From sequence record PZ338878.1: 64,000 nucleotides of DNA; one strand, given 5' to 3'. Below are positions 7,306 to 60,843 of this stretch, piece after piece (positions within the stretch are counted from its first letter, which is position 1; each line of letters starts with the position of its first letter). The notes beneath the pieces were generated by a model. It made no database searches and was not told where the DNA came from. It saw nothing but the letters and a program-made list of their open reading frames with translations. This DNA comes from a phage. A program made the position numbers and the translations under genes.

Positions 7306-7710
7306 TTATTGTAGCTTAAGTGAACTGCGAAGACGTTTCTCTTGCTGATCACGAATATGTTGTGGAACCTCATGAATTGAGTCGTTACCGTGCCTATTTT
7401 CAACAACTAAAGAGATAACTTGATAACCAAACTCTTCAGCAAGAGTAAAATAAGGTTTAAGTTCTTTCTCTGTGGTTGAAGTGTTAGAGACAATAATCTT
7501 TTTAATATCAGATGCCATAGCATCACGAACAATACTCTGACACCATGCGTGTGCTTTACCTACATTCTCTGGCTTCCAATCGTAAACACCACTTTCTGTG
7601 TAATGATATTGATCTGCCTCACAGATAGGCCAATAACCTTCAGAAATAATTTCTGCTACTGTAGATTTACCTGCACCTGAAACACCACGTAAAATGATAA
7701 GTTGTTTCAT
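7306..7710 (-). CDS. P-loop polynucleotide 5'-kinase-like protein
   Basis: N-terminus MKQLIILRGVSGAGKST resembles the T4 Pnk kinase domain start (Walker A); abuts the RNA-ligase-like gene. Confidence 0.5.
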   Translation of the reverse strand: MKQLIILRGVSGAGKSTVAEIISEGYWPICEADQYHYTESGVYDWKPENVGKAHAWCQSIVRDAMASDIKKIIVSNTSTTEKELKPYFTLAEEFGYQVISLVVENRHGNDSIHEVPQHIRDQQEKRLRSSLKLQ

Positions 7711-8643
7711 TTAGCCTCCAAAGAAGTTTTCTATTTCTTTACGTCGCTCTTGTGGATCTAAAGCAGCCCATTGAGTCTTAGTAAAGTTGTTTCGAAGCCA
7801 TTCTAGCAAAGTATAATATTCTTCGTCAACAATTTGTTTAGCATTTTTTGGGTTGTCCCAAATCATATCCCACTTCTTATTGCCACCACGCATAAGGAAT
7901 TTCTTAGCAAGATAATATGGTGACTTAATCTTTAACAGCAAGTTAAACGGATAGTTTGTTTCACGAATAACAAACCCTTCGTGCTTACAATGTTTAGACA
8001 TTTCAACAACATCTGAAAATTTAATCATCGGATAAACTTCAGGACGTTTAAATTTTGTAATAGATGCAATCCCATCAAGCACACCTTCGGGTAACATGAA
8101 ACTTGTCCCATCAGGATTTTGAATCCTTGCTCCAATTAAGTATGCGCCTGGTTCTTCTTCAACAATATGTGGATCAGAAGGATCACAGATTTCAAAAAGG
8201 AAAGTTGCTTTTGCACTTTCTGTCCACTTAATGAAATATTCTATGTCATCACACTCGGAAACAATATGGTTCTTGGCAAGAATTGCAAAATCTGACTCTA
8301 GGCTCCCTGTTGTTGATACAATAAGTTGCCCTTTGTACACACCTACAGATGCCATAAAACCGTTTACTTTACGGACAGCATCTACAAGCTGGTCTGCTGG
8401 AAGATCTGTACCATTCTCAAAACGATTAAAGATTTTAGTAAAAGGCCAAATAACAACATTGTCTTCTGAGTCAACAACCAACCCACGACAATCTAGAAGG
8501 CGTTTGTCTACGTCCCACAAGTTGTCCCAGAATACATTGTTTTTGTATTTAAGTACAGCAAGACCAGCATACTCTCCAGATTTAACTTCTTTTTTATGCA
8601 CTAAACCTTTTGCAATCAGGTCATCACAATTGAACTTAGCCAC
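7711..8643 (-). CDS. RNA ligase-like nucleotidyltransferase
   Basis: Motifs KVNGF (I, no Arg at +5, unlike DNA ligases), FEICD (III), EGFVIRE (IV), LLLKIK (V). Confidence 0.5.
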   Translation of the reverse strand: MAKFNCDDLIAKGLVHKKEVKSGEYAGLAVLKYKNNVFWDNLWDVDKRLLDCRGLVVDSEDNVVIWPFTKIFNRFENGTDLPADQLVDAVRKVNGFMASVGVYKGQLIVSTTGSLESDFAILAKNHIVSECDDIEYFIKWTESAKATFLFEICDPSDPHIVEEEPGAYLIGARIQNPDGTSFMLPEGVLDGIASITKFKRPEVYPMIKFSDVVEMSKHCKHEGFVIRETNYPFNLLLKIKSPYYLAKKFLMRGGNKKWDMIWDNPKNAKQIVDEEYYTLLEWLRNNFTKTQWAALDPQERRKEIENFFGG

Positions 8644-8644
8644 C

Positions 8645-9196
8645 TTAATCTCCTTTGATTATCTTATGATGGTCTACAACAACAATATCACGCTTATCCA
8701 TAATAGAGATGATTTCGTCAAAATGCAAGATTTTTCCGTGTGCGTCCCAACCAACATCCAACATTTTCCCATACAAATGATCAGGGAATGATCCGTGAGA
8801 GTGCCCGTGTAGCATGATTGATCCATGCCCTTGTTTATTCCAGGAAGCCATAGGGTAATGGCTTAAGACGAAGAACAGTTTCTGATATTTCACTTCATCA
8901 TAATACACCACCTCGCCATATTCTGCAAGCACTTCTCGGTGTTTACTGTAATCATGGTTCCCAACACAGTAAGTAATATCCCCTTGGAGACGGGAAGCAA
9001 TCTTACGGGTATCTTCTTCAGTCCCGAAACAGAAGTCCCCAAGATGGTACATCTTTACTCCTGGTCTTGTGGCACATTTATTCCATGCTTCGATCAGTGC
9101 TTCTGTCATATGCTCCATATCTTCCCACGGGCGATATTCAGGAGCAAACTCTCGGATACGTTTGTGCATAAAATGCAAATCACTTGTAATAAACAT
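8645..9196 (-). CDS. calcineurin-like metallophosphoesterase (candidate 2',3'-cyclic/3'-phosphate end-healing phosphatase)
   Basis: Motifs DLHF, GDFCFG, GNHDY, GHSHG. Confidence 0.6.
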   Translation of the reverse strand: MFITSDLHFMHKRIREFAPEYRPWEDMEHMTEALIEAWNKCATRPGVKMYHLGDFCFGTEEDTRKIASRLQGDITYCVGNHDYSKHREVLAEYGEVVYYDEVKYQKLFFVLSHYPMASWNKQGHGSIMLHGHSHGSFPDHLYGKMLDVGWDAHGKILHFDEIISIMDKRDIVVVDHHKIIKGD

Positions 9197-12087: not shown

Positions 12088-12981
12088 ATGAAAGTTAGTA
12101 TTCTGCATGGTGTTGACTGTTATGTTACTGATGTAGACGTTAAAGTGTTTACATTCTCTGGTGGAGAACAACATGTTCAATTAGATATGAATCTATCAGA
12201 TTTCAATCATGCTACAGACAGAATCTTACTCACTTTAGAAGTAAGATCTGCTAAAGACTTGATGACTTTGGTTATGACTAAGAATGCATTGGACAATATG
12301 CTATATCATAAACCATATTGTGTTGATTTACTCATGTTGTATGTGCCGTATGCACGACAAGACAGAGTGTGTGAGCCTGGGGAAGCATTCGGAGTTAAAG
12401 CATTTGCTTCTATAATTAATTCATTAAATTTCTCACGTGTTATCGTTGCTGATCCGCATAGTGATGTTACTCCAGCAGTGTTTGACAGACTCTGTGTAAT
12501 ACCTCAAGAAGAGATTGCTTACGAAACTTTAAAGTGGAAGTTACGTATGGAGAATTTTGCTCTTGTTAGCCCTGATGGTGGTGCTCTTAAGAAAATATTT
12601 AAATTATCTAAGAAAATGTCTTTAGATGTGTTCTGTGCAGAGAAGGTTAGAGATACCGCAACAGGTGCTATTGTTCGTACAGACATTTCTGTACAGGATT
12701 TCAATAAGCGTAACCTGATGATCGTAGATGATATCTGTGATGGTGGTAGAACTTTTATCGAATTGGCTAAAGTGCTACGTGCTCGTAACGCAGGTAAGAT
12801 TGAGCTATATGTTACGCACGGTATCTTTTCTAAAGGTCTTAAAGAGTTAAGTGAGCACTTTGACTGCATTCATTCCCTTAATGTGTGGGAAGATAACATC
12901 CAAGAAGATTCTGGTGTTCTTGTTAAGAATCAGTCAGATTTGCAACAACAAATTGTATCTCCATACGTGTGGAATTTTTAA
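12088..12981 (+). CDS. prs: ribose-phosphate pyrophosphokinase (PRPP synthetase) family protein; candidate ADP-ribose pyrophosphokinase (Adps) of a NARP1-type pathway
   Basis: PRPP-binding loop MIVDDICDGGRTF; AAGGAG RBS; adjacent to nadV-like gene. Confidence 0.75.
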   Translation: MKVSILHGVDCYVTDVDVKVFTFSGGEQHVQLDMNLSDFNHATDRILLTLEVRSAKDLMTLVMTKNALDNMLYHKPYCVDLLMLYVPYARQDRVCEPGEAFGVKAFASIINSLNFSRVIVADPHSDVTPAVFDRLCVIPQEEIAYETLKWKLRMENFALVSPDGGALKKIFKLSKKMSLDVFCAEKVRDTATGAIVRTDISVQDFNKRNLMIVDDICDGGRTFIELAKVLRARNAGKIELYVTHGIFSKGLKELSEHFDCIHSLNVWEDNIQEDSGVLVKNQSDLQQQIVSPYVWNF

Positions 12982-12991
12982 ATAATAAGTG

Positions 12992-13020
12992 TTGACAATA
13001 GGGAGTATGCTTAGTAAGAT
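12992..13020 (+). promoter_or_regulatory. sigma70-type promoter upstream of the nadV-like gene, with overlapping inverted repeat
   Basis: TTGACA, 17 nt, TAAGAT; 8-bp inverted repeat GGGAGTAT / ATACTCCC (13001-13008 and 13019-13026) brackets the -10. Confidence 0.5.
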
Positions 13021-13052
13021 ACTCCCACATTAACAAACAAGGAGACATAACT

Positions 13053-14786
13053 ATGAATATTTTTGCACCTTTTGCTACTGATTGGTACAAACCTGGTCAC
13101 AAGCAGATGTACAACCAAAATACAAAACTTATTTTCTCTAATTTAACTCCTCGTAATGATAAAAACTTTGCACACTATGCAGATCGTGAAGCACGTGGTG
13201 TGATTGTTTTAGGTATTCGTCGAGCAGTCACTGATGCTCTTGTAACTATGTGGGATAGCTTCTTTAAAATGTCTCGTAGTGCAGCAGTAAATAAATTTTA
13301 TCGTATGTCTAAAAATGCATTAGGTGCTTCTGCTCCTTCTGCTGAATGTTGGGGAGAATTGCACGATTTAGGTTATCTTCCGCTGGAAGTTCGATCTCTG
13401 CCAGAAGGTGTTTTGTGTCCTATTGGTGTTCCTGTGTTTACTGTGCATAATACTTTAGAAAAATTCTTTTGGTTAACTAACTATGTGGAAACACTACTGT
13501 CAGATGAAACTTGGAAGACAATGACTAATGCCACAGCAGCTTTTCAGTATAAGCGTATCGCTATGGCATATGCGATGGCAACGTGTGATAATATTGATCA
13601 CGTTAACTTCCAGTGTCATGATTTTAGCCTACGTGGTTTAAGTAATATCGAAGATGGTTATAAGAGTGGTATCGCTCACTTGGCATCGTTCACAGGAACA
13701 GATAATATTCTGGCTATTGAAACTGTGCATGACTATTATGGTATTGATTATGATCAGTTTGTTGCAGGTTCGATTCCGGCAACAGAACATTCAGTAGCAA
13801 CGACTAACATTGGAGCTATTGTTGAAGATCTGAAGAAACATTTCCCACATCTTAAAGATGATGTAGATGGGCTTCGTTATGTAGCAGAAAAAGAGTTTCT
13901 TCGTCGTTATATCGAAGAAATTGTTCCAGAAGGTTTTTGTTCATATGTAGCAGACTCTTATGACTATTGGGCTGTATTGACTCGCATTCTGGTAGAATTG
14001 AAAGATTCCATTATGTCACGAAATGGTCGTCTTGTTATTCGTCCAGATTCAGGAGATCCGGTTAAAGTTGTTGCAGGATACAATGTTGAATCTTTTGATA
14101 ACTATGAAGACCTCTTAAATAATGGTATTGCGACAGCCACTGAAGTAGTTCATTTGGCTGATGTTAATAAGTATTACAATGTTCTTCAGGATTGCAGTGT
14201 TGCTGACTGTATTGATGAAACTTATGAGATTCCTTATTGTGAAGCAGTAGGTTCTATTCAAATCCTTTGGGAAGTGTTTGGTGGTACTATCAACCGAAAA
14301 GGCTACAAGGTTCTTGATCAGCATATCGGTATGATTTATGGTGATTCTATTACTGTTGAACGAGAACACGAGATCTTACGCCGACTGAAGAAGAAAGGTT
14401 TTGCAGCTTCCAATATTGTATTTGGTGTTGGTAGTTATACTTATCAGTTCAATACACGAGATACTTTTGGTTTTGCTGTTAAAGCAACAGGTAGTATTAT
14501 CGGTGAACACGAAATTTTGGTAAGTAAGGAGCCTAAAACTGATCCTGGTAAACGCTCTGCAAAAGGTTTTATTAAGGTTGTTAAGGATACCAATGGTAAT
14601 CTGTCTCTTGTAGATAATCTTTCTTTTAAAGATATCCAGGATGAAGACAATGAGTTACAAGTTATCTTCAAGGATGGTAAGGTTATTACACCACAAGTAG
14701 AAGGCCGTGATGAAACATTCACTGATATCCGCAACCGTGTTGACGTAGAGGTTCTTCGTACTATGGGAACCATCCAGGTTGACTAA
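13053..14786 (+). CDS. nadV: nicotinamide phosphoribosyltransferase family protein; candidate nicotinamide ADP-ribose transferase (Namat) of a NARP1-type pathway
   Basis: 577 aa; NAMPT-like N-terminus (FATDWYKPGHKQMY); GGAG RBS. Confidence 0.75.
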   Translation: MNIFAPFATDWYKPGHKQMYNQNTKLIFSNLTPRNDKNFAHYADREARGVIVLGIRRAVTDALVTMWDSFFKMSRSAAVNKFYRMSKNALGASAPSAECWGELHDLGYLPLEVRSLPEGVLCPIGVPVFTVHNTLEKFFWLTNYVETLLSDETWKTMTNATAAFQYKRIAMAYAMATCDNIDHVNFQCHDFSLRGLSNIEDGYKSGIAHLASFTGTDNILAIETVHDYYGIDYDQFVAGSIPATEHSVATTNIGAIVEDLKKHFPHLKDDVDGLRYVAEKEFLRRYIEEIVPEGFCSYVADSYDYWAVLTRILVELKDSIMSRNGRLVIRPDSGDPVKVVAGYNVESFDNYEDLLNNGIATATEVVHLADVNKYYNVLQDCSVADCIDETYEIPYCEAVGSIQILWEVFGGTINRKGYKVLDQHIGMIYGDSITVEREHEILRRLKKKGFAASNIVFGVGSYTYQFNTRDTFGFAVKATGSIIGEHEILVSKEPKTDPGKRSAKGFIKVVKDTNGNLSLVDNLSFKDIQDEDNELQVIFKDGKVITPQVEGRDETFTDIRNRVDVEVLRTMGTIQVD

Positions 14787-15533: not shown

Positions 15534-15609
15534 GGTTCCATAGCTCACTGACGAGAGCGCACACCTCATAAGTGTCGAGGGCAGGGATTGTAACCCTGGG
15601 GAACCACCA
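15534..15609 (+). tRNA. tRNA-Met (anticodon CAT; Ile2 or initiator not excluded)
   Basis: 76 nt; acceptor GGTTCCA/GGGAACC (one 7:66 mismatch); anticodon loop CTCATAA; non-canonical T-loop ATTGTAA; CCA encoded. Confidence 0.5.
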
Positions 15610-15640
15610 TTTAAAAGGAGATGCTATGCATCTCCTATAT

Positions 15641-15726
15641 GCAAGTGTGGTGGAATTGGTGATACACATTGTGCTTAAAACGCAACGCTTAAATGATTGA
15701 GGGTTCGAATCCCTCCACTTGCACCA
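15641..15726 (+). tRNA. tRNA-Leu (anticodon TAA)
   Basis: 86 nt class II; acceptor GCAAGTG/CACTTGC; anticodon loop CTTAAAA; long variable arm; T-arm GAGGG-TTCGAAT-CCCTC; A73; CCA encoded. Confidence 0.7.
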
Positions 15727-15728
15727 AC

Positions 15729-15834
15729 GCCTAGTAGGGTATTTGGTAATTCCGAGGCCATCAAAGCCTGAAAAATATGTTAGACCGCTTTGTCTAACTA
15801 AATACGAAATATGGTTCGATTCCATAACTAGGCT
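15729..15834 (+). ncRNA. tRNA-like element, 106 nt, non-canonical (possible stable small RNA, pseudo-tRNA or suppressor-like)
   Basis: Perfect 7-bp acceptor pairing GCCTAGT/ACTAGGC and canonical T-arm TATGG-TTCGATT-CCATA, but a 40-nt internal region with a 7-bp hairpin (15779-15798); candidate anticodon loop CATCAAA; no CCA encoded. Confidence 0.3.
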
Positions 15835-15866
15835 TCAATTTAAATAATAATTTTAGTAAAAATATC

Positions 15867-15895
15867 TTGACATTCACTTAGTTTTTTGTTATAGT
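15867..15895 (+). promoter_or_regulatory. sigma70-type promoter inside the tRNA array (TTGACA, 17 nt, TGt-TATAGT)
   Basis: Perfect -35 plus TG-extended -10, about 12 nt upstream of the next tRNA-like gene. Confidence 0.5.
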
Positions 15896-15906
15896 TACTG
15901 TGAAAA

Positions 15907-15988
15907 CGGGGTGTATCTCACCTGACTTCTAATCAGGCGTTAACCGAGTAATTGGAGTATGCAGGTTCGAATCCTGTCACCCCGACCA
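15907..15988 (+). tRNA. tRNA-Arg (anticodon TCT)-like, non-canonical D region
   Basis: 82 nt; acceptor CGGGGTG/CACCCCG; canonical anticodon arm CCTGA-CTTCTAA-TCAGG; T-arm GCAGG-TTCGAAT-CCTGT; CCA encoded; only 5 nt where the D-arm should be and a 23-nt region before the T-arm. Confidence 0.45.
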
Positions 15989-16006
15989 AAAAGTTTTAAA
16001 AACTAC

Positions 16007-16036
16007 TTGACAAGCAAGATAGTTTTATGTTAGATT
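16007..16036 (+). promoter_or_regulatory. sigma70-type promoter inside the tRNA array (TTGACA, 18 nt, TGt-TAGATT)
   Basis: Perfect -35 plus TG-extended -10, about 15 nt upstream of tRNA-Ser. Confidence 0.5.
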
Positions 16037-16051
16037 TAAAGTATGATAACG

Positions 16052-16141
16052 GGAAGGTAGGGCGCAGCGGTGCGCAACCAGGTTTGAACCCTGGCCCATT
16101 GTAGCGATACGGTGATGGTTCGACTCCATTATCTTCCTCCA
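16052..16141 (+). tRNA. tRNA-Ser (anticodon TGA)
   Basis: 90 nt class II; acceptor GGAAGGT/ATCTTCC; anticodon arm CCAGG-TTTGAAC-CCTGG; 19-nt variable arm; T-arm GATGG-TTCGACT-CCATT; CCA encoded. Confidence 0.7.
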
Positions 16142-16159
16142 AATTCAACTAGGAGCTTT

Positions 16160-16312
16160 ATGAATTATAAAACTATTGGACAGGTTGTTACCGGAGTTAA
16201 GATTGTAGATAATAAAGTTGTTTATGAGTATTCTAATCTTCAACAATCTGAAGATGGTAAAAATATTCGTATGGTAAAAGCAGAACAAAAAGATTCCGGT
16301 TGTTTTGAATAA
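16160..16312 (+). CDS. small hypothetical protein (50 aa) between tRNA genes
   Basis: AGGAG RBS then ATG at 16160; the ORF-track start at 16112 lies inside tRNA-Ser. Confidence 0.3.
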   Translation: MNYKTIGQVVTGVKIVDNKVVYEYSNLQQSEDGKNIRMVKAEQKDSGCFE

Positions 16313-16320
16313 TTAAGAAC

Positions 16321-16406
16321 GGTAGATTGGTGAAATGGTAGCCACAACAGTTTGCTAAACTGTCGTCGGAAACGGCGTGTAGGTTCAAGTCCTACATCTA
16401 CCGCCA
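16321..16406 (+). tRNA. tRNA-Ser (anticodon GCT)
   Basis: 86 nt class II; acceptor GGTAGAT/ATCTACC; anticodon arm ACAGT-TTGCTAA-ACTGT; long variable arm; T-arm GTAGG-TTCAAGT-CCTAC; G73; CCA encoded. Confidence 0.7.
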
Positions 16407-16540
16407 AGTTATCTTTAATGTAGCTTGTAATCTTACTTTAATAGAGTAAACTTTCGGCAGATGGCCTCCACCATCTTACCGATACCCTAATACTTCATAG
16501 TCAAGTGCCGCAAACACTGGCTATTTTAAAGATAATTTAT

Positions 16541-16616
16541 ACATCGTTAGCTTAGTTGGTAGAGCAAGGGGCTTTTAACTCCAAGGTCGAAGGTTCGAAT
16601 CCTTCACGATGTACCA
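16541..16616 (+). tRNA. tRNA-Lys (anticodon TTT)
   Basis: 76 nt; acceptor ACATCGT/ACGATGT (A1-U72); D-arm GCTT-AGTTGGTA-GAGC; anticodon loop CTTTTAA; T-arm GAAGG-TTCGAAT-CCTTC; CCA encoded. Confidence 0.65.
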
Positions 16617-16621
16617 AACAC

Positions 16622-16708
16622 GTAGGTATCGCATAGCGGCAATTGCTGGAGACTGTAAATCTCCTGCCCTTCGGGGCTTCGTTGGTTCGAGTCCAACTAC
16701 CTGCACCA
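16622..16708 (+). tRNA. tRNA-Tyr (anticodon GTA)
   Basis: 87 nt class II; acceptor GTAGGTA/TACCTGC; anticodon arm GGAGA-CTGTAAA-TCTCC; 16-nt variable arm with TTCG loop; T-arm GTTGG-TTCGAGT-CCAAC; CCA encoded. Confidence 0.7.
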
Positions 16709-16715
16709 AATTAAA

Positions 16716-16800
16716 GATGGATTGGCCTAGTGGTTGGGCGACGGACTGTTAATCCGTGAACGAAAGTTCTAGCAAGGTTCAAATCCTTGATCCATCGCCA
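16716..16800 (+). tRNA. tRNA with Asn anticodon (GTT) but a class II-type long variable arm
   Basis: 85 nt; acceptor GATGGAT/ATCCATC; D-arm GCCT-AGTGGTT-GGGC; anticodon arm ACGGA-CTGTTAA-TCCGT (as E. coli tRNA-Asn, from memory); 15-nt variable arm with GAAC/GTTC stem; T-arm CAAGG-TTCAAAT-CCTTG; G73; CCA encoded. Confidence 0.55.
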
Positions 16801-16879
16801 AATAGTGCTTGTAGAGTTAATAGAAACCTCTAGAATTTTCTAGAATTGTAGGTATAAAATCCTACCAAGCAAATATTTT

Positions 16880-16954
16880 GCTCCTATCGTATAACGGCTA
16901 TTACGGTTGCCTTGTAAGCAACTTATCAGGGTTCGAGTCCTTGTGGGAGCACCA
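16880..16954 (+). tRNA. tRNA-Thr (anticodon TGT)
   Basis: 75 nt; acceptor GCTCCTA/TGGGAGC; anticodon arm GTTGC-CTTGTAA-GCAAC; T-arm CAGGG-TTCGAGT-CCTTG; CCA encoded. Confidence 0.7.
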
Positions 16955-16971
16955 ATTTTAACTCTAAAGGA

Positions 16972-58657: not shown

Positions 58658-58684
58658 CAAAGAAAAGGAGCCGTTAGGCTCCTT
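58658..58684 (-). terminator. rho-independent terminator, near-identical copy of the 57493 hairpin
   Basis: Minus-strand AAGGAGCC-TAAC-GGCTCCTT then TTTCTTTG. Confidence 0.5.
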
Positions 58685-60079: not shown

Positions 60080-60109
60080 ATAATAACACATAATTGTAAG
60101 GTTTGTCAA
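60080..60109 (-). promoter_or_regulatory. sigma70-type promoter on the minus strand (TTGACA, 18 nt, TGt-TATTAT)
   Basis: Perfect -35 and extended -10 read on the minus strand; only about 10 nt from the ATG at 60069, so the transcript would be near-leaderless. Confidence 0.3.
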
Positions 60110-60112
60110 CAC

Positions 60113-60706
60113 TTAAATCTTAAATTCTTCGTTGTTAAACGAATCTAGTGTACGTACTTCTGGTTTTTTGGGAATGAAAACGTCTTTTACAAAGCGGAAC
60201 ATAGGGAAACGTTCTGCCATTTTACGGACGTGTGCTTCTTTACCTGTGTATCGGTGATTAATAGTGCAAATATTAGTTTTCAATGCAAAGTCAAAATCTG
60301 GATGATATACATAATTTTGACCATCCCAGTAACACAGGCAAATAGCTACGTCAAAATTCCATACGATTTCACTGCGTACACCCTCTTCCATGATCATAAA
60401 GTTAAACTTAAGATCTTTATAGTATGCTTCAAATACCCATTTCAAATGTGGTAGTTCGGCATAAGTGTGTTCTGTTTGCTTAGTAAGTTGTTTAACATTA
60501 CGTGCACCAACACCCAACATCAAAAATTTCTCTACCAGTACGGTTGTATTGTGGTTAGGCATACGCAAGTAAATGTCAATATCTTGCGCAGGTGTTTCTA
60601 ATCGCCAGTCGCGTACAGCGCCGCCAGCTACAATTGCAAACGGATCTACCAGTTGGCACATACGTAATACTTCTAAAGCGCGTACTTTTTGATCTTCAAT
60701 ATTCAT
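60113..60706 (-). CDS. CCA-adding enzyme/poly(A) polymerase-type nucleotidyltransferase head domain
   Basis: AIVAGGAVRDWRLETPAQDIDIY matches the GGxVRD...DxD motif of class II tRNA nucleotidyltransferases; 197 aa. Confidence 0.5.
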   Translation of the reverse strand: MNIEDQKVRALEVLRMCQLVDPFAIVAGGAVRDWRLETPAQDIDIYLRMPNHNTTVLVEKFLMLGVGARNVKQLTKQTEHTYAELPHLKWVFEAYYKDLKFNFMIMEEGVRSEIVWNFDVAICLCYWDGQNYVYHPDFDFALKTNICTINHRYTGKEAHVRKMAERFPMFRFVKDVFIPKKPEVRTLDSFNNEEFKI

Positions 60707-60843
60707 ATTTTCTCCTATCTCTTATGGTCTTTGCGTTATTCTAGATGTTCAAACATCTAATTATGAAATGGTTTAAAAGTGCGGAACAACCTTGGCAATA
60801 ATAGATTGTCCCACATAAAAACTCCTTTAAAATCAAACAGATA

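Follow-up and report, generated by a model that had tools for sequence, protein, structure and literature searches.

In CCA-adding enzymes, the RRD motif discriminates nucleoside triphosphates (NTPs) from deoxynucleoside triphosphates (dNTPs), the EDxxR motif selects C or A, and the body and tail domains anchor the tRNA. Here, we describe a small nucleotidyltransferase (NTase), the orthologue of phi92 gp158, which is encoded in a 64,000-nucleotide stretch of phage DNA (sequence record PZ338878.1). We refer to this whole stretch as the window; it belongs to a phi92-like coliphage (Justusliebigvirus, Stephanstirmvirinae). According to structure prediction, the NTase consists of the catalytic core of such enzymes, and the specificity elements listed above are missing. 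Its family is linked to the replisome module of phages, not to tRNA genes, and appears from profile comparisons to be a distant relative of the anti-Gabija protein Gad2.

The gene, its annotation as NTase or "tRNA nucleotidyltransferase/poly(A) polymerase", and its assignments to PHROG 1614 and to the Pfam family Gad2 are already public. RefSeq annotates phi92 gp158 as "nucleotidyltransferase", the relative JLBYU50 and the Phapecoctavirus orthologues carry the label "putative tRNA nucleotidyl transferase/poly(A) polymerase", and some phage records call similar small NTases "Gad2 family". That nucleotidyltransferases form part of phage RNA-repair kits has likewise been suggested in print (PMC7824862, PMC12776372). 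The published model for an NTase completing such a kit is RlaP (PF10127), an RNA-ligase-associated nucleotidyltransferase that extends RNA 3' ends by one or two nucleotides (PMC12776372, PMC7824862). Just like the NTase of the window, RlaP is a small Pol-beta enzyme. However, RlaP genes adjoin RNA ligase genes, whereas the window NTase is encoded 51 kb from the phage RNA ligase, and PF10127 gave no match to the NTase at E <= 1.

A remote relative is Gad2 of Bacillus phage SPbetaL7, a predicted nucleotidyltransferase of 400 amino acids (aa) that acts as an anti-defence protein against Gabija (bioRxiv 10.1101/2023.05.01.538930). Deletion of gad2 renders SPbetaL7 sensitive to Gabija, and expression of Gad2 is toxic (bioRxiv 10.1101/2023.05.01.538930).

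Results

The NTase is predicted to be a stand-alone class II catalytic core

The open reading frame (ORF) of the NTase is a real conserved gene and not a chance ORF. The NTase region shares 96-97.6% DNA identity with 56 phage records, and the protein is 96-99.5% identical across 56 phi92-like phage genomes. The window and phi92 differ by 14 synonymous and 4 non-synonymous codons in this gene, which is therefore under purifying selection. The ribosome-binding site that we read in front of the start codon (Table 1) is also annotated in the phi92 record.

When AlphaFold was run on the single sequence, the predicted local distance difference test (pLDDT) score was 30.6. The model used was built instead from a 107-sequence alignment and reached a pLDDT of 86 and a predicted template modelling score (pTM) of 0.82, with disorder confined to the last 15 residues (ordered to about residue 180). 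The head-domain fold of class II tRNA nucleotidyltransferases is present in this model. Its 39 best Foldseek matches in the PDB were all class II enzymes, and 148-158 residues of the model aligned to targets of 344-517 residues. The structural-neighbour figures were 11.3 for the A-adding enzyme of A. aeolicus, 10.6 each for the CCA enzymes of T. maritima and B. stearothermophilus, 10.2 for a CC-adding enzyme, 9.6 and 9.4 for the human and plant CCA enzymes, and 9.3 for 2la3, a stand-alone 191-aa "CCA head domain" protein. Antibiotic nucleotidyltransferases gave 5.4-7.3 and MenT1 gave 6.7; the antibiotic, minimal (MNT) and MenT nucleotidyltransferases were not the closest structural neighbours. 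As modelled, the NTase is thus a stand-alone class II (Cca/PcnB-type) Pol-beta core, made up of a head domain and a short helical neck remnant, without body or tail. The protein in 2la3, NP_344798.1 from Streptococcus pneumoniae, is likewise a stand-alone "CCA-adding enzyme head domain" protein; however, it is bacterial and shares 11% identity with the NTase, and we found no sequence-level link between the two.

An earlier, sequence-only reading of this ORF had described a 197-aa protein with the GGxVRD...DxD signature of a class II head and without the long C-terminal body of cellular CCA enzymes. Our results agree with this description: GGAVRD lies at residues 28-33 and DID at 42-44, the length is about half that of E. 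coli Cca (412 aa), and structure prediction returned the class II head rather than an unrelated Pol-beta family as the closest fold.

The short length is shared by the relatives of the NTase. We searched 1.84 billion cluster representatives exhaustively with phmmer and recovered 481 homologues among them, 112 at E <= 1e-10; most were 175-220 aa long. Therefore, the short length is the normal architecture of a large family and not a truncation. The full-length profile of PHROG 1614 ("nucleotidyltransferase") matched with an E of 3.5e-34, residues 7-193 of the NTase falling on profile positions 20-206.

Conserved residues suggest an intact catalytic site

We used two alignments of the family, A1 with 73 and A2 with 107 sequences. 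G28, G29, W34, D42 and D44 were invariant in both (107/107 and 73/73 for D42 and D44), and R32 was invariant in A2 and present in 72/73 sequences of A1. Q6, A27, A30, R32 and Y82 were each invariant in one alignment and above 90% in the other. Near-invariant positions were D33 (>90%), I122, C123, F138, Y153, K162 and F167, and position 126 is Trp in most family members and Tyr in the window NTase. Given the conservation of G28-G29, R32, D42 and D44, the catalytic machinery looks intact, and the NTase is probably catalytically active. The candidate for the third catalytic carboxylate is E93; an acidic residue (E or D) occupies this column in about 70% of the family, and an amide residue (N or Q) in about 26%.

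In the mechanism that we propose, an NTP or dNTP would be anchored through its triphosphate to G28-G29 and R32. D42, D44 and probably E93 would serve as ligands of two Mg2+ ions, and an acceptor hydroxyl would be activated to attack the alpha-phosphate and thereby receive the nucleotide. W34, Y82, C123, residue 126, Y153, H159 and K162 may replace the lost specificity motifs described below.

Several members deviate from the common architecture. The homologue in the Vibrio phage ICP1 (matches H68-H80) spans residues 3-126 only and appears as two ORFs in several records; it is elsewhere annotated as the 137-aa ORF223 (BFVD F1D1P7) and may be a split or truncated enzyme. On one metagenomic phage contig, two paralogues of the family lie 1.6 kb apart (L003:3636-4400 and L003:6001-6615) and flank a Dam-type methyltransferase. 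Four homologues of 284-400 aa (P0059, P0077, P0101 and P0201) have N-terminal extensions of 90-210 aa; these are built from a small domain without annotation, MK.R[IV]...H...[IV]Q..LF..GY.W...EY, occurring once or twice, and gave no Pfam match. The same minimal head-type fold also occurs in nucleocytoplasmic large DNA viruses (BFVD matches in Pithovirus, Klosneuvirus, Orpheovirus and others), where the proteins are sometimes annotated with ankyrin, F-box or BTB domains.

Specificity elements of CCA-adding enzymes are missing

The NTase has half the length of class II tRNA nucleotidyltransferases and PcnB (E. coli Cca and PcnB, the B. stearothermophilus CCA enzyme 1miv and the A. aeolicus A-adding enzyme 4wby), and its sequence resembles theirs over only about 25-53 residues around motif A. 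The Pfam head-domain profile PF01743 (PolyA_pol) matched with an E of 8e-4 and 20.1 bits, below the gathering score of 23, and covered profile positions 3-67 of 126. The CCA equivalog of NCBIfam, NF009814, gave 13.8 bits against a cut-off of 290. We found no match of the NTase to PHROG 2244, the full-length phage 'tRNA nucleotidyltransferase'. A sequence search of the PDB with the NTase alone returned nothing relevant, and with the family profile, the search matched CCA enzymes in the region of motif A only (E 0.012).

Judged from motif strings across 179 family members, and not from residue-level structural superposition, motif B (RRD, ribose recognition) occurred in 0/179, and motif D (EDxxR, the amino-acid template selecting CTP and ATP) was absent from the window NTase and present in 10/179 members at scattered positions. 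The window NTase has no Arg anywhere between residues 112 and 151. In place of motif D, the family keeps Y153, [D/E]157, [H/Y]159, K162 and [R/K]166-F167. The model, the structural alignment and the lengths of family members all indicate that the 197-aa NTase lacks the tRNA-anchoring body and tail domains.

With RRD, EDxxR, body and tail absent, ordered synthesis of CCA on tRNA by the NTase alone would therefore be unlikely. Since the ribose-sensing, base-templating and tRNA-anchoring parts have been lost, the nucleotide and acceptor specificities must differ from those of a CCA enzyme. Judging by these comparisons, the NTase is unlikely to be a CCA-adding enzyme in the strict sense.

Two other lines of argument were rejected. 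Residue equivalences for motifs B-D were discarded, as Smith-Waterman alignment of residues 100-180 with E. coli Cca and PcnB scored at the level of shuffled sequences (z ~ -0.4). The near-neutral isoelectric point (pI) of the NTase was dropped as an argument against RNA binding since an acidic pI is also found in E. coli Cca (6.2; head and neck 5.3).

A remote and partial relationship to Gad2

Many homologues have a precomputed Pfam match to PF26128 "Gad2" at E <= 1e-5, including the 98%-identical protein P0001, on whose match, and not on one of the window NTase itself, the membership rests. In hhalign, the family profile matched the single Gad2 sequence with 90.6% probability (E 1.3e-6, 104 columns), as opposed to 3.9% for E. 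coli Cca (25 columns) and 22.9% for PcnB (53 columns). By this single-sequence test, the family is therefore closer to Gad2. A comparison of profiles, with SPbetaL7 Gad2 and its relatives on one side, gave 96.3% (E 1.5e-9, 109 columns). The match covers the NTase core only, aligning window residues 22-147 with Gad2 residues 25-136. Both proteins are phage-encoded and share a homologous nucleotidyltransferase core with GGA...DxDxY and FDxx[IV]C elements. From the profiles, we regard the NTase family as related to Gad2, remotely and partially.

The two genes also differ in setting: that of Gad2 belongs to an anti-defence locus in a temperate Bacillus phage, that of the NTase to a replisome operon. 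A Gad2 split over neighbouring genes was considered and rejected, since gp157 and gp156 downstream of the NTase do not supply the C-terminal half; in hhalign they reached 11.8% and 0.2%, in both cases outside the C-terminal region. In a survey of Erwinia phages, 'gad2' and the NARP2 NAD-salvage pair co-occur perfectly.

The family is linked to replication genes and not to tRNA genes

From 80 IMG/VR loci, we derived 46 non-redundant loci, in which gene neighbours were counted within five genes and tRNAs within 8 kb. A T7 gp4-like primase-helicase was found in 18/46 loci and a family-A polymerase in 16/46, either of the two in 27/46, and a FEN-type exonuclease in 5/46. Only 5/46 loci had any tRNA nearby. 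The NTase family is thus associated with the replisome module and not with tRNA genes.

The window follows this pattern (Table 1). The DNA polymerase gene is closely preceded by the primase-helicase gene, and the NTase gene begins 137 nt downstream of the polymerase gene end, giving the order DNA polymerase, NTase, gp157, gp156 and DNA methyltransferase. The promoter and the hairpin suggest, from the sequence, that DNA polymerase-NTase and gp157-gp156 are separate transcription units. Phapecoctavirus keeps the order of polymerase, NTase, a protein of about 130 aa and one of about 300 aa, with an NTase identity of just 36%. In the unrelated podovirus fHe-Kpn01, a Klebsiella phage, gp22 carries a putative nucleotidyltransferase label and lies immediately 3' of a family-A polymerase, its gene overlapping the polymerase stop codon. 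Gp22 belongs to the same PHROG 1614 (E 1.3e-39) and is of similar size (182 versus 197 aa); however, it is very divergent, with 26 columns alignable to the family profile. Its overexpression in E. coli is toxic (PMC7291057). We found no gp22 homologue annotated in the KP34 region. Small NTases of similar type also adjoin replication genes in Pectobacterium Autographiviridae (PMC7693777).

Table 1. Features of the NTase locus and of the RNA-related loci in the window
Feature	Position	Strand	Remarks
NTase coding sequence (orthologue of phi92 gp158)	60113..60706	minus	ATG start, 197 aa, stop codon within span; read as ORF
Ribosome-binding site AGGAG	60712..60716	minus	5 nt 5' of the NTase ATG; read in sequence
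Motif A, triphosphate-binding turn, codons G28-G29-A-V-R32-D33	60608..60625	minus	Sequence and family alignments
Motif A, D42-I-D44 codons, two metal-binding carboxylates	60575..60583	minus	Sequence and alignments
E93 codon, candidate third catalytic carboxylate	60428..60430	minus	Suggested by h-[DE]-h pattern V-F-E-A in predicted strand 88-96
Family-A (T7-like) DNA polymerase, 859 aa	60844..63423	minus	Upstream neighbour; ORF, PF00476 DNA_pol_A on near-identical contig, phi92 annotation
gp157, 132 aa	59671-60069	minus	Downstream neighbour; ORF; PHROG 16560, label without function
gp156, 315 aa	58707-59654	minus	ORF; PHROG 4477, label without function; "SSB" in some records
Sigma-70-like promoter, TTGACA-18-TATTAT, 11/12, TG	60080..60109	minus	Between NTase stop and gp157; consensus scan only
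Terminator-like hairpin	58665-58684	minus	After gp156
tRNA array, 16 genes	15534-18410	plus	
RNA-repair cassette, T4-like	7306-9196	minus	Three genes
RNA ligase of the cassette	7711-8643		
Ribose-phosphate pyrophosphokinase and nicotinamide phosphoribosyltransferase	12088-14786	plus	Annotated; just upstream of the tRNA array

The sequence-only reading had pointed out a tRNA array and an RNA-repair cassette, and both are real. The cassette encodes a 134-aa AAA_33 kinase-type P-loop protein, a 310-aa T4 Rnl1-type RNA ligase (PF09511) and a 183-aa metallophosphoesterase, and probably serves the healing and sealing of cleaved tRNAs. The NTase gene is located 42 kb from the array and 51 kb from the ligase gene, which belong to other transcription units. 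The 3' CCA is genomically encoded in all 16/16 phage tRNA genes, and therefore maturation of the phage tRNAs needs no CCA addition.

These observations bear on a minimal repair of tRNA 3' ends, in which a head-only enzyme would re-add A, CA or CCA to host or phage tRNAs that were trimmed or blocked by nucleases or toxins. The NTase would then complement the 16 phage tRNAs and the ligase, kinase and phosphoesterase of the cassette, both of which the phage indeed carries. Its class II head with GGxxRD and DxD has CCA-, A- and CC-adding enzymes as best matches, defences acting on tRNA 3' ends exist (MenT, toxSAS), and CCA enzymes and RlaP have been proposed or shown to belong to phage and bacterial RNA-repair kits (PMC7824862, PMC12776372). 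However, RRD, EDxxR, body and tail are all absent, the Pfam and NCBIfam thresholds were missed, and PHROG 2244 was not matched. The tRNA genes bring their own CCA, and the NTase gene sits 42-51 kb from the tRNAs and ligase in a replication operon. Across the family, tRNAs are near only 5/46 loci, and Rnl1-type ligases are frequent in phage groups with few or no NTase homologues by tblastn (for example, 175 Pseudomonas and 63 Streptomyces records). Nothing specific points to tRNA 3'-end repair, and we consider this explanation improbable.

The same evidence speaks against the proposal of the earlier reading that a CCA-adding-type enzyme completes a phage tRNA maintenance kit, as does the finding that the family is nearer to Gad2 than to Cca or PcnB. 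While the class II head and the absence of the body stand, the assignment as a CCA-adding enzyme and the completed kit are unsupported: the gene, itself already known, was read correctly, and its function was interpreted too specifically.

Another explanation is that the NTase acts as a DNA-end terminal transferase or replisome accessory, adding untemplated nucleotides to 3' ends of phage DNA, to a primer or to a protein in replication, recombination or end protection. Its gene directly follows a family-A polymerase in two unrelated phage lineages, and 27/46 loci lie among primase-helicase, polymerase and FEN genes. The loss of the ribose-discriminating RRD would, from the biochemistry of CCA enzymes, permit the use of dNTPs. 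However, we know of no class II-type enzyme that acts on DNA, the NTase has no DNA-binding domain, and co-location with replication genes may be a matter of timing only. The BASEL authors remarked that the replication genes of Gordonclarkvirinae include a nucleotidyltransferase and speculated about DNA modification (PMC11990801), whereas many phages with the same replisome do without the NTase gene (PMC7693777). We regard this explanation, too, as hardly a likely one.

Two features of the surroundings may be of separate interest. The DNA polymerase has 859 aa in the window and 1104 aa in the phi92 RefSeq record (L001:10245-13559), and the two share their N-terminus; therefore, the phi92 polymerase contains an internal insertion of about 245 aa, possibly an intein or a homing element. 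The polymerase of another relative is annotated as 'part I'. The two enzymes annotated just upstream of the tRNA array (Table 1) are those of the NARP2 pathway, by which phages reconstitute NAD+ as a counter-defence. PADLOC gave no defence-system match.

Discussion

The reading that we favour, and which we would call evenly poised, combines three elements: an active class II-type core without the features of CCA enzymes, a role as a middle gene together with the DNA polymerase, and a function in counter-defence or host takeover by analogy with Gad2. The enzyme, co-expressed with the DNA polymerase, would modify, to the benefit of the phage, the end of a nucleic acid or some other target. Counter-defence is the weakest step of this reading; it is suggested by analogy with Gad2, the only relative that has been tested.

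A number of points weigh against it. The linkage to the replication module may reflect no more than the timing of co-expression, and the NTase gene belongs to the syntenic core of Stephanstirmvirinae, unlike the many anti-defence genes that are variable accessories. The homology to Gad2 is remote, with 22% identity over the core only. Gad2 has GGTITSLF where the window NTase has GGAVRDW and the NTase family GGAPRDW; its invariant D106 falls at a position that is variable in the NTase family, and the family-invariant residues differ. Moreover, the conserved C-terminal half of Gad2, about 270 aa, has no counterpart in the NTase or in the adjoining genes, and according to a 2026 review, how Gad2 works has yet to be established (PMC12904381). 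The nearest solved structures all belong to enzymes working on RNA 3' ends, and about a quarter of the family has Asn or Gln at the position of the candidate third carboxylate. Our literature search found no biochemical study of the family of about 190-aa NTases.

A bolder version holds that phages have repurposed the core of CCA enzymes. In this version, a replisome-linked family of at least 481 clusters, stripped of the specificity motifs and tRNA-binding domains, would have as its target not tRNA but either the ends of DNA or a defence complex of the nuclease type, for instance Gabija, possibly with dNTPs, as an enzymatic counter-defence shared with Gad2. We find this version doubtful as a whole.

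RNA tailing in the manner of PcnB is a further alternative, in which short A-rich or other tails on host or phage RNAs would lead to decay or altered stability during host takeover. Of the two cellular enzymes compared, PcnB gave the longer alignment (53 columns), and small phage NTases of the same PHROG or of similar type are toxic on overexpression (PMC7291057; bioRxiv 10.64898/2026.09.15.751885). However, PcnB has the RRD motif, the EDPVR motif and a basic RNA-binding C-terminus, all of which the NTase lacks, and the NTase gene has no link to RNA-decay genes, which makes RNA tailing quite improbable. A catalytically inactive remnant, retained as a structural or binding protein, would agree with the N or Q at the third-carboxylate position in about 26% of the family and with the loss of the nucleotide-selecting motifs, but it is scarcely credible for a protein under strong purifying selection in which G28, G29, D42 and D44 are invariant, R32 is nearly so and E93 is kept.

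Action on DNA ends, on RNA 3' ends and on tRNA is inseparable by sequence tools. For an active class II-type core that serves the phage alongside its DNA polymerase, the interest lies in the substrate of a widespread, replisome-linked phage enzyme family, with a possible bearing on the action of Gad2. Gad2 is the one anti-Gabija protein that is apparently enzymatic, and the NTase family is its remote relative. The identity of the substrate would correct the labels "tRNA nucleotidyltransferase" and "Gad2 family", which are now based on partial similarity only. It would also reveal either how Gad2-type proteins disarm Gabija or a new end-modification step in phage replication.

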